DNA from: a virus
Length of the DNA: 37,455 nt
UHGV virus genome: UHGV-0248180
Reading direction: 5' to 3' (one strand)
Within the stretch, counting starts at the first letter, position 1. Every line of letters starts with the position of its first letter. A program made the position numbers and the translations under genes. Positions 22,143 to 24,128 of the stretch are shown piece after piece. Below the pieces are notes generated by a model, which was not told where the DNA came from, ran no database searches, and saw nothing but the letters and a program-made list of their open reading frames with translations.

Positions 22143-22406
22143 ATGTTTAAAGTATATGGTTATGATAGCAACATTCATAAATGCGTGTATTGCGATAATG
22201 CAAAACGTCTTTTGACTGTGAAGAAACAGCCGTTTGAATTTATCAACATTATGCCGGAAAAAGGTGTTTTTGATGATGAGAAAATCGCTGAGCTTCTGAC
22301 TAAACTAGGTCGTGATACTCAAATCGGCTTGACAATGCCTCAGGTATTTGCTCCTGATGGAAGTCATATTGGTGGATTTGACCAACTGCGAGAATATTTT
22401 AAATGA
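22143..22406 (+). CDS. nrdC: Glutaredoxin/thioredoxin NrdC (87 aa)
   Basis: CVYC active site; matches T4 NrdC from memory. Confidence 0.92.
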   Translation: MFKVYGYDSNIHKCVYCDNAKRLLTVKKQPFEFINIMPEKGVFDDEKIAELLTKLGRDTQIGLTMPQVFAPDGSHIGGFDQLREYFK

Positions 22407-22620: not shown

Positions 22621-22791
22621 ATGATTTACGATATTAGCGTATCAAGAACTCCGTCAATGGTTACTATTCCTGCTGAAGAACTAAATCGTCTTCAGAAAAT
22701 TGAAGAGCTTCTTTGGGAAATTGAATCTGATTTGCCATCAGGACTAGAATCCTGGATTGATTATGAAGAACTTAATAAGCTTCGGGGTTAA
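22621..22791 (+). CDS. hypothetical protein (56 aa)
   Basis: ORF; track start 22597 is TTG, first ATG is 22621. Confidence 0.45.
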   Translation: MIYDISVSRTPSMVTIPAEELNRLQKIEELLWEIESDLPSGLESWIDYEELNKLRG

Positions 22792-22843
22792 ACCCTGGTG
22801 GGCGGCTAGATGGGAAACTGTAGAGCCAGAGCCGGAAGAACCG

Positions 22844-22873
22844 GTTTACACTGATGAAGAAACAGTATATAAT
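22844..22873 (+). promoter_or_regulatory. T4 early-type promoter upstream of pin (GTTTAC-N18-TATAAT)
   Basis: GTTTAC 22844-22849; TATAAT 22868-22873. Confidence 0.5.
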
Positions 22874-22913
22874 GAACCAACGATAAATGACTTAATTGAT
22901 ATGGAGATGGGAC

Positions 22914-23399
22914 ATGATTACAGTAGATAAGTGGTTTAGAATTAATCGTGTTGATACAGGGCTATGTAATTACTGGCCGGAACTTAGTGCAGGTACTGTC
23001 TTTAAAGTTCGTGAACTTACAAAAGAATGTGAAGATGATATAGAGCCTGATACTGGAATTATTGAAATTGAACTTTCCGACGGAAAGATTATTAACATCT
23101 ATGATAAGCCAATTACGTATTGGTGCTTGTGGAATGCTGAATCCGTTGAAAATGGCGAAATTGAAGAAGTTGTAGAGAGAACTAGCCAAGATGTTCAGAA
23201 GCCTAAAGCCGCTTTTCAAGGTGAACGTATTTCATATGCATTAGCTAAAGTGGCATTGAAAAAAGATATTGATGATTATGAAGGTAACCTGATGCAAGCT
23301 GCGGCAGAATATATTGAATGGCTTGAAACACAAAATTCTTTTTCTGACCAAATGATTCGGCAATATAAGCGATTGCATCAAATGTTTTATAATACTTGA
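22914..23399 (+). CDS. pin: Pin, inhibitor of host Lon protease (161 aa)
   Basis: Synteny nrdC-pin-49 and 161-aa size as in T4; GGAG RBS before ATG 22914 (track start 22896 is TTG). Confidence 0.8.
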   Translation: MITVDKWFRINRVDTGLCNYWPELSAGTVFKVRELTKECEDDIEPDTGIIEIELSDGKIINIYDKPITYWCLWNAESVENGEIEEVVERTSQDVQKPKAAFQGERISYALAKVALKKDIDDYEGNLMQAAAEYIEWLETQNSFSDQMIRQYKRLHQMFYNT

Positions 23400-23435
23400 A
23401 AAAACTCAAAATTCTTTTTCTGACAAGGCATTTTA

Positions 23436-23612
23436 ATGAAAACCGAATTGGTTTATACTGAAAAGTTAAATGGCGGTAAGGTTTGGAAACTTTTTATTAA
23501 AGGACATTCTACGGACCCTCATATGACCACTTGCGTAGGAACCTATTCTCGTCCTACTAAAAAGATGATTCGACAGTATAAACGATTGCATCGAATGTTT
23601 TACAATACTTAA
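23436..23612 (+). CDS. small ORF (58 aa) whose last 15 codons duplicate the C-terminus of Pin
   Basis: ORF below track cutoff; 48-nt segment 23565-23612 is ~87% identical to 23352-23399. Confidence 0.35.
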   Translation: MKTELVYTEKLNGGKVWKLFIKGHSTDPHMTTCVGTYSRPTKKMIRQYKRLHRMFYNT

Positions 23613-23623
23613 AAATAATAAAT

Positions 23624-23648
23624 ACCCTTATCTATTTAAGGTAAGGGT
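23624..23648 (+). promoter_or_regulatory. Hairpin (ACCCTTA / TAAGGGT) overlapping the gene 49 ribosome binding site
   Basis: 7-bp inverted repeat; 3' arm contains AAGGG just upstream of ATG 23655. Confidence 0.5.
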
Positions 23649-23654
23649 TTTATT

Positions 23655-24128
23655 ATGTTATTGACTGGCAAATTATATAAAGAAGAAAAACAGAAATTTT
23701 ATGATGCACAAAACGGTAAATGTTTAATTTGCCAACGAGAACTAAATCCTGATGTTCAAGCTAATCATCTTGATCATGACCATGAATTAAATGGACCAAA
23801 AGCAGGAAAGGTACGTGGATTGCTTTGTAATCTCTGCAATGCCGCAGAAGGTCAAATGAAGCATAAATTTAATCGTTCTGGATTAAAGGGACAAGGTGTT
23901 GATTATCTTGAATGGTTAGAAAATTTACTTACTTATTTAAAATCCGATTACACCCAAAATAATATTCACCCTAACTTTGTTGGAGATAAATCAAAGGAAT
24001 TTTCTCGTTTAGGAAAAGAGGAAATGATGGCCGAGATGCTTCAAAGAGGATTTGAATATAATGAATCTGACACCAAAACACAGTTAATAGCTTCATTTAA
24101 GAAGCAGCTTAGAAAGAGTTTAAAATGA
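23655..24128 (+). CDS. 49: Endonuclease VII, Holliday junction resolvase (157 aa)
   Basis: Translation matches T4 gp49 from memory; zinc motif CLICQ..CNLC. Confidence 0.95.
   Translation: MLLTGKLYKEEKQKFYDAQNGKCLICQRELNPDVQANHLDHDHELNGPKAGKVRGLLCNLCNAAEGQMKHKFNRSGLKGQGVDYLEWLENLLTYLKSDYTQNNIHPNFVGDKSKEFSRLGKEEMMAEMLQRGFEYNESDTKTQLIASFKKQLRKSLK

Follow-up and report, generated by a model that had tools for sequence, protein, structure and literature searches.

The C-terminal tail of the T4-type Lon inhibitor Pin was very probably captured from a neighbouring DUF7279 gene

Pin (PinA) of phage T4 is an inhibitor of Lon protease, and both the binding and the inhibition of Lon have been established for the 161-residue T4 protein (PMC8835725). 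Here we examine its gene, pin, together with the small open reading frame (ORF) that follows it, in virus genome UHGV-0248180, a stretch of 37,455 nucleotides (nt) referred to below as the window. The window is from a T4-like phage, a Tequatrovirus, and includes the nrdC-pin-gene 49-nrdD segment. Two segments at the pin 3' end recur downstream, and these repeats very probably record two recombination events, one after the other, in the variable interval between pin and gene 49, with pin as the recipient. Sequence comparison marks Pin as a chimera, the last 15 residues of T4 PinA being apparently foreign to the Pin family domain. The donor would be the following gene, a 58-codon ORF of the DUF7279 family (ORF58), which the window still carries intact. 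Between 22800 and 23800 the window shares 99.9% identity with Escherichia phages ES12 and ES26 and 96.8% with RB32, and the local order is nrdC (22143-22406), three small ORFs, pin, ORF58, a hairpin, gene 49 and nrdD. The features on which the argument turns are as follows.

22914-23399, plus strand: pin, encoding Pin (PinA, Lon protease inhibitor) of 161 amino acids (aa), the fused T4-type allele; Pfam Inhibitor_I24, PHROG 2167.
23326-23348, plus strand: first copy of repeat D2, native pin codons (..ETQNSFSD) forming the last part of the Pin core; once per locus type.
23349-23351, plus strand: junction codon CAA (Gln146); the joint of the proposed 137-nt in-frame deletion lies between 23351 and 23352.
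23352-23399, plus strand: first copy of repeat D1, the putative captured tail, Pin codons 147-161 and stop, corresponding to ORF58 codons 44-58.
23396-23406, no strand assigned: joint TTGAAAAAACT, specific to the locus type of the window (W type, below), where the sequence after the fused pin (..ACTTGAAAA) meets the ancestral pin 3' end (AACTCAAAATTC..).
23404-23436, plus strand: probable relic of the ancestral pin 3' end (TQNSFSDKAF and TAA), with the second copy of D2 at 23402-23424.
23436-23612, plus strand: ORF58, an intact DUF7279 gene of the RB32 ORF078c / RB69 ORF087c family; PF23945 with E 3e-17, PHROG 3272 with E 3.4e-34.
23565-23612, plus strand: second copy of D1, the native C-terminal helix of ORF58 (codons 44-58 and stop; helix at 42-56 in the model), the likely source type of the pin tail.

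Comparison of the locus with itself confirmed both repeats. D1 pairs 23352-23399 with 23565-23612 at 42/48 identities (87.5%), extending without gaps to 51 nt (45/51), and D2 pairs 23326-23348 with 23402-23424, where 22 of the 23 nt agree. A sequence-only reading of this DNA had placed both correctly, giving 48 nt at about 87% for the first, which stands, and 18 nt for the second, which is in truth 23 nt long. Scored at +1 for a match and -2 for a mismatch, the ungapped alignments reached 33 (D1) and 20 (D2), against a mean of 10.7 (standard deviation 1.5, maximum 16) in 60 dinucleotide-preserving shuffles of 22800-23800; since both exceed that maximum, a chance match is excluded for each. An assembly artefact was likewise ruled out, because the junction that runs from the tail into the second copy of D2, used as an 86-nt query, is found at full coverage and at least 95% identity in 108 deposited phage records. 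At the protein level ORF58 ends in MIRQYKRLHRMFYNT and Pin in MIRQYKRLHQMFYNT, the near identity to which the same reading had drawn attention.

ORF58 is a complete family member. It scores 62.7 bits against Pfam DUF7279 (PF23945), above the gathering cut-off of 24.5, with residues 7-56 covering positions 1-53 of the 53-position model, and it is 100% identical to RB32 ORF078c. The basic motif at the DUF7279 C terminus, RPTK.xIRxxKRxHRxF, is present; related versions occur in the upstream paralogue of Mosigvirus (below) and in three other genera. Among 10 aligned homologues the invariant columns are R39, P40, T41, K42, I45, R46, K49, R50, H52, R53 and F55, and their densest run falls in the tail. 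The protein has a pI of 10.2 and a net charge of about +9, against 4.3 and about -15 for the Pin core, and its dN/dS of 0.05-0.27 between genera indicates purifying selection. We found ORF58 in 329 phage records, at one place in each except for a single record with two places, which was not inspected. ORF58 is thus a real gene, and this conservation, together with an AAGG Shine-Dalgarno-like site at 23425-23428, 7 nt before its ATG, suggests that it is expressed. In the best of five AlphaFold2 models (pLDDT 81.7, against 52-63 for the rest) the predicted fold is beta-beta-beta-alpha: three strands precede a C-terminal helix, residues 42-56, and this helix is the tail.

Searches for distant relatives were uninformative. 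Neither Pin nor ORF58 found a usable match among the sequences of PDB chains, and neither had a match in PADLOC. The fold search of the ORF58 model against the PDB returned no match with E below 0.1, the top ones being dsRNA-binding-domain-like and not significant, and that against BFVD returned only uncharacterised phage proteins, the best of them a 54-aa protein of Salmonella phage S16; neither search pointed to a function. A HMMER profile of ORF58 run against 1.84 billion representatives gave 9 matches, only 3 of them below E 1e-10 and the rest weak or fragmentary. The DUF7279 family is thus narrow and without informative distant relatives, and our literature search found no paper that mentions it.

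The region just upstream of ORF58 can be read as an older end of pin. Positions 23404-23436 read ACT CAA AAT TCT TTT TCT GAC AAG GCA TTT TAA, the TAA overlapping the ATG of ORF58, and sequence of this type is the true end of pin in the Tequatrovirus phages ZCEC14, HY01 and pSs-1 (Z type, below) and also in Gaprivervirus and Dhakavirus. The 18-nt downstream segment of the sequence-only reading would therefore belong to a relic of the ancestral pin 3' end, its stop still overlapping the start of the next gene, and would be no copy inserted into the ORF. With its AAGG the relic now likely serves as the leader of ORF58 and supplies its ribosome-binding site.

The boundary within Pin is equally well placed by the family models. 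We took the start of pin at ATG 22914 from the T4 and RB32 annotation, the ORF list having begun this frame at TTG 22896; the stop is the TGA at 23397-23399. The product is collinear with T4 Pin (AAD42641.1), 15-residue tail included, and passes the gathering threshold of Inhibitor_I24 (PF10465; E 1.3e-45, 155.1 bits, cut-off 27). This match covers residues 4-140 only and that to PHROG 2167 residues 1-146, and a second match, to PHROG 3272, appears at 146-161 (E 0.001). A profile of 10 ORF58 homologues, run against the six-frame translation of the window, found only ORF58 itself (E 1.7e-42) and the Pin tail, profile positions 43-58 matching the last 16 residues of Pin (146-161) with E 2.3e-7. 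The Pin tail is thus homologous to the C terminus of DUF7279 and lies outside the Pin domain. Because the Pin models end at 140 or 146 and the ORF58 profile matches from 146 to 161, it is Pin that appears as the chimera. In nucleotides the pin tail of the window agrees at 46/48 positions with the ORF58 tail of the phages pSs-1 and KNP5 (ATGATTCGGCAATATAAGCGATTGCATCGAATGTTTTACAATACTTGA).

To decide which gene owns the tail we compared the locus across related phages. At least four Tevenvirinae genera have ORF58 at this position, between pin and gene 49, and always with the tail. The gene ends in the three genera other than Tequatrovirus are these.

RZ (Gaprivervirus): Pin ends ..RFADKAF and stop, with a TGATG overlap with the next gene; the ORF58 homologue ends ..RPTKKMIRQFKRLHRSFYNI.
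JS98 and ESCO10 (Dhakavirus): Pin ends ..RFSDEAF and stop; the tail of the ORF58 homologue is of the RZ type.
JS09 and O157 typing phage 3 (tp3; Mosigvirus): Pin ends ..YLERRLS and stop; the ORF58 homologue ends ..RPTKRMIRQYKRFHRDFYN..

Where ORF58 exists in these outgroups the tail is absent from Pin, the single exception being an independent fusion with a different joint (below). Since outgroup ORF58 has the tail and outgroup Pin does not, the tail is native to ORF58 and, on this comparison, appears on Pin as a derived state specific to Tequatrovirus, bar that one separate fusion. Of the sequence-only reading, then, the repeats and the idea of illegitimate recombination or module shuffling survive, and the direction from pin to the small ORF is reversed. 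That the pin 3' end was copied downstream, leaving ORF58 as the chimera, is scarcely credible: the window alone cannot separate the two polarities, as both repeats occur at the pin 3' end and again downstream, but ORF58 is a full-length DUF7279 protein with the tail inside the model, its homologues in three other genera carry a tail that the Pin beside them lacks, the Pin models stop before the tail, and in about 80 Tequatrovirus genomes a tailed ORF58 adjoins a tail-less Pin.

Within Tequatrovirus the locus occurs in four types.

Z type (ancestral): ZCEC14, HY01, pSs-1, KNP5; Pin of 148 aa ending ..SFSDRAF and stop, TAATG overlap, ORF58 with tail.
T4 type: T4, ECML-134, IMG/VR loci L011-L014; Pin of 161 aa with tail, no ORF58.
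132 type: phage 132, GiZh, ESh17; Pin of 148 aa, no ORF58.
W type: the window, RB32, ZN18 (L010), SG1; Pin of 161 aa with tail and ORF58 with tail.

The layout of the Z type is that of the outgroups, which identifies it as ancestral. Z-type pSs-1 differs from T4 by a single 137-nt gap (GAC CGA / GCGTTTTAATG...AAAAAG / ATGATTC) that takes out the stop of pin together with ORF58 codons 1-43, with the reading frame restored, and the Z type differs from the 132 type by a single 169-nt gap (TTTTAAT / ... / ACTTGAAAA) that removes ORF58. The W type differs from the Z type by one 76-nt indel with the bounds of D2 and from the T4 type by one 213-nt indel with the bounds of D1, so that each parental type is separated from it by one contiguous indel between direct repeats, as expected of an unequal crossover. 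Each type should be recognisable by its junction string (fusion GACC[GA]AA[TA]GATTC; W TTGAAAAAACTCAAAATTC; Z GC[AG]TTTTAATGAAAAC; 132 type TTTTAATACTTGAAAAT). A scan of IMG/VR with Pin gave 5 loci, and counts were therefore made on the GenBank phage collection: W 108, T4 type about 260, Z about 80 and 132 type at least 60, rough figures obtained by BLAST coverage heuristics on a redundant database, with short partial matches near the E-value limit. The window, RB32, ZN18 and SG1 have exactly the same W joint, although their pin and ORF58 alleles otherwise differ, which points to a single origin of the W type followed by spread.

The tails themselves carry some record of this history. All pin tails that we read (T4, ECML-134, four W genomes, four IMG/VR loci and six database cluster representatives) have CAA (Gln) at the codon where ORF58 has CGA (Arg), a common change that suggests a single origin of the tail on Pin. 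A query combining the pin junction with CGA, the hybrid that D1 crossover or gene conversion could leave, matched no record without mismatch. Between the two copies in the window the synonymous differences CGG/CGA, CAA/CAG and AAG/AAA are all existing allelic variants of ORF58, and TAT/TAC is not among the ORF58 alleles read. The ratio of 4 synonymous to 1 nonsynonymous difference between the copies was rejected as a sign of purifying selection on both tails, as the ORF58 of pSs-1 and KNP5 carries most of the states of the pin type; these differences are thus mostly donor allelic variation and not divergence after duplication. Across genomes, pin tails vary at M1K, R3Q, H9N and one synonymous site, with R10Q in the founder, and Tequatrovirus ORF58 tails at synonymous sites only. 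The counts, 4-5 nonsynonymous to 1 synonymous in pin tails against 0 to 3 in ORF58 tails (Fisher p ~0.05-0.1 by hand calculation), suggest, with small numbers, a tail constrained in ORF58 and relaxed in Pin. Most likely, then, the tail in Pin is a tolerated passenger rather than a selected binding peptide.

A history in two steps would account for these arrangements. The ancestral locus had a 148-aa Pin ending ..SFSD(R/K)AF, its stop overlapping the ATG of the small basic ORF58, which ends in the C-terminal helix ..RPTKKMIRQYKRLHRMFYNT; this is the layout seen today in the Z type and the outgroups. An in-frame deletion of 137 nt, comprising the last three pin codons, the stop and ORF58 codons 1-43, would then have placed the last 15 ORF58 codons directly after Pin residue 146 and produced the classical 161-aa T4 Pin without ORF58. 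The sequence comparison displays this fusion directly, and deletion is its presumed mechanism. The W type would have arisen by an unequal, nearly homology-free crossover between a fused genome and one of the ancestral type, with exchange just after the fused pin stop (..ACTTGAAAA) and inside the ancestral pin 3' end (..GAAACTCAAAATTC..). On the Z side the point probably lay within the pin codons L-E-T (..CTTGAAACTCAAAATTC), the two sides overlapping at the joint by at most 1 nt of an A run. The product would have an intact ORF58 behind the fused pin and, between the two, 11 codons left over from the old 3' end of pin, which still bear the ribosome-binding site of ORF58; this unequal exchange would explain the two copies of the pin tail (D1) and of the 23-nt stretch of the pin 3' end (D2). 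Such an arrangement is presumably metastable, as recombination between the D1 copies would remove 213 nt and yield the T4 type and recombination between the D2 copies would remove 76 nt and yield the ancestral type. Both predicted types exist, and T-even phages recombine very actively, so that collapse of W into them would be expected under either order of events.

Several points weigh against this account. The order, fusion and then crossover, may be the reverse, W having come first and the T4 type having formed from it by D1 recombination. The ends of the 137-nt deletion show no visible microhomology, and the second, independent fusion of a tail to Pin could hint at selection for such fusions. 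The type counts are as rough as stated, only about 20 loci were read base by base, and the view of the tail as a passenger rests on very few substitutions, with the borderline p given above.

The strongest alternative concerns that order. A tandem duplication from the pin 3' end through ORF58 might have arisen first in the ancestral type and been followed by the 137-nt deletion in the first copy, giving W, from which the T4 type and some Z genomes would have descended through D1 and D2. We regard this as distinctly the less likely course, yet it has clear attractions: the indels that set W apart from the T4 type (213 nt) and Z (76 nt) are exactly those that the repeats bound, T4-type ECML-134 carries exactly the pin-tail haplotype of the window, and the recombination activity of T4-like phages is high, as noted. 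Its costs are one more step for the T4 type, the absence of a genome with two full ORF58 copies among the 329 records (one two-place record uninspected), and the absence of a pin tail with the ORF58-type CGA, which some D1 crossovers should have left as a hybrid.

A second alternative accepts the history and assigns the tail a function, as a portable peptide, selected in Pin, whose binding partner would be Lon, Pin or something else. In its favour, conservation within the DUF7279 family is highest in the tail, which is predicted to form an amphipathic basic helix, about 366 records keep it in frame on Pin, and in a Mosigvirus-like contig Pin has been fused in frame a second time, independently, to the final 9 residues of the ORF58 homologue; the acidic Pin core and the basic ORF58, whose pI values are given above, are moreover encoded by genes that are translationally coupled in the ancestral type. 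On the other hand, Pin can do without the tail, which is as a rule lacking outside Tequatrovirus and is missing from the Pin of at least 140 Tequatrovirus records as well. The substitutions in pin tails are mostly nonsynonymous, those in ORF58 tails synonymous only, and one third of random deletions would be in frame in any case. An AlphaFold2 model of Pin built on 24 homologues (pLDDT 57.7) is too poor to show docking. On balance a selected peptide, with history and function taken together, seems improbable.

Going a step further, ORF58 could be a second, translationally coupled anti-Lon component whose basic helix contacts Lon or the acidic Pin core, a proposal that we consider still more of a long shot. 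Were it true, the 161-aa T4 PinA would be a natural "single-chain" version that keeps only the helix, and biochemistry with T4 PinA may not describe the ancestral two-protein system. The N domain of Lon recognises exposed aromatic or hydrophobic residues at the C terminus of Sul20 (PMC8087443), and the aromatic C terminus of Sul20 bears a loose resemblance to the tail end ..HQMFYNT, a lead only.

If pin is the recipient, as we prefer, the description of a reference protein needs correction, the last 15 residues of T4 PinA having been captured from the neighbouring gene. In the PinA literature that we examined we found no discussion of its C terminus. For mapping of the Pin-Lon interface and for PinA as a tool it is relevant that natural 148-aa, tail-less Pins are common and that in many relatives a conserved, basic and translationally coupled DUF7279 gene adjoins pin; tail-less Pins and their DUF7279 neighbours are ready-made natural constructs for the function of the tail. 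The locus also offers a traceable case of T-even accessory remodelling, in which ancestral, fusion, gene-loss and crossover types all still circulate.

Parts of this picture have precedents. The pin of the window is a close orthologue of T4 pin (PF10465), 161 aa and collinear with it including the tail, and differs from the T4 locus in being followed by ORF58 and the relic of the older pin 3' end, both absent from T4. ORF58 occupies the same position between pin and gene 49 as RB32 ORF078c, RB69 ORF087c and JS98 orf76 (DUF7279, PHROG 3272), and the GenBank note for RB32 already reads "similar to RB69ORF087c, JS98orf087clike, pin", silent on which gene was the donor. The similarity of pin and ORF58 has therefore been noted before, and we found no statement of its direction or of a foreign C terminus in T4 PinA. 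Deletion fusion and unequal crossover in a plastic T-even region are likewise a well-known kind of event, ordinary phage mosaicism. Adjacent T4 cistrons are deleted and fused at short or no homology, as in the classical rII deletion r1589, which fuses rIIA to rIIB. The pin locus resembles these cases in an in-frame deletion that leaves the beginning of one gene attached to the end of the next and in indels bounded by short direct repeats; it differs in being a natural polymorphism fixed in hundreds of wild genomes, and in that the crossover would have restored the deleted gene beside the fusion.

To the right the locus ends in two features that do not vary.

23615-23656, plus strand: hairpin just upstream of gene 49 (-18.2 kcal/mol, z -3.3), conserved in all genera and locus types inspected.
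23655-24128, plus strand: gene 49 (endonuclease VII), the next gene downstream, which is the same in every locus type.

The 3' arm of the hairpin covers the Shine-Dalgarno region of gene 49 up to the ATG, the 5' arm contains a late-promoter-like AATAAATA, and a terminator-like site lies at 23624-23648. Judged from the loci compared, the hairpin appears to be the fixed right-hand boundary of every rearrangement. Hairpins that sequester the ribosome-binding sites of T4 late genes have been reviewed, with gene 49 listed on the authority of Barth et al. 1988 (PMC2988022). The conserved hairpin of the window resembles them in its position over the gene 49 Shine-Dalgarno region; unlike them in its role here, it lies outside the duplication and only marks the invariant right edge.

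The interval between pin and gene 49 appears, from the arrangements collected, to be recombination-prone in general. Ec_YwIITB1 (L017, 775-1035) is a rare recombinant with a Z-type left half; its ORF58 body meets a D2-Gln-tail segment of the pin type (..ACTAAAAAGAT / TCTTTTTCTGACCAAACGATTCGG..) out of frame, and the resulting 86-aa ORF runs through the hairpin into the start of gene 49. The independent fusion mentioned above is in a Mosigvirus-like metagenomic contig (Logan SRR20302901; L018, 1501-1926), where a Mosigvirus-type Pin runs in frame into the final 9 residues of the ORF58 homologue (..YLERR to FHRDFYNVY and stop) at a CGTTT microhomology and ORF58 is deleted. The fusion comes from this one contig, whose quality is uncertain because several of its D-to-G substitutions look odd. 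In O157 typing phage 3 (L008, 963-1141) a frameshift splits the ORF58 homologue into ORFs of 29 and 30 aa, through pseudogene formation or sequencing error.

Pin itself varies within and around its core. At 23230-23290 the pin of the window has a divergent patch, ..ALAKVALKKDIDDYEGN where T4 has ..ALAKLAAQENNDGYEGN, and the patch also occurs in some tail-less Pins (e.g., GiZh and P0025); pin alleles thus appear to be mosaics that recombine independently of tail status. At the pin locus of RZ (L005, 762-935) and of ESCO10 (L009, 828-1001) we found only a 57-aa protein that matches the C-terminal third of T4 Pin, and in JS98 (L006, 529-1004) this 57-aa C-terminal module is followed by a separate 100-aa gene resembling the N-terminal part of Pin (E 3e-4). 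The module order in JS98 is the reverse of that in T4 Pin, so that Pin looks modular. Mosigviruses have a second DUF7279 paralogue directly upstream of pin, of the RB69 ORF089c type (JS09 in L007, 406-576; L018, 1329-1499); it is 41% identical to ORF58, and pin is flanked there by two family members. A database protein of 191 aa, P0046, reads as this upstream paralogue fused to Pin.

Upstream of pin in the window, a near-consensus sigma-70-type promoter (TTTACA, 17-nt spacer, TATAAT; 11/12 matches) at 22845-22873 sits in the homologue of gene 49.1, about 40 nt before the pin ATG, and may be an early promoter for pin and ORF58. Further upstream, at 22621-22791, lies a 56-aa ORF of PHROG 3402, which is annotated "antitoxin from a toxin-antitoxin system"; it also has a weak, sub-threshold match to the T7 gp5.9 RecBCD-inhibitor family (PF25708, E 0.001, 19.4 bits, cut-off 24.5).

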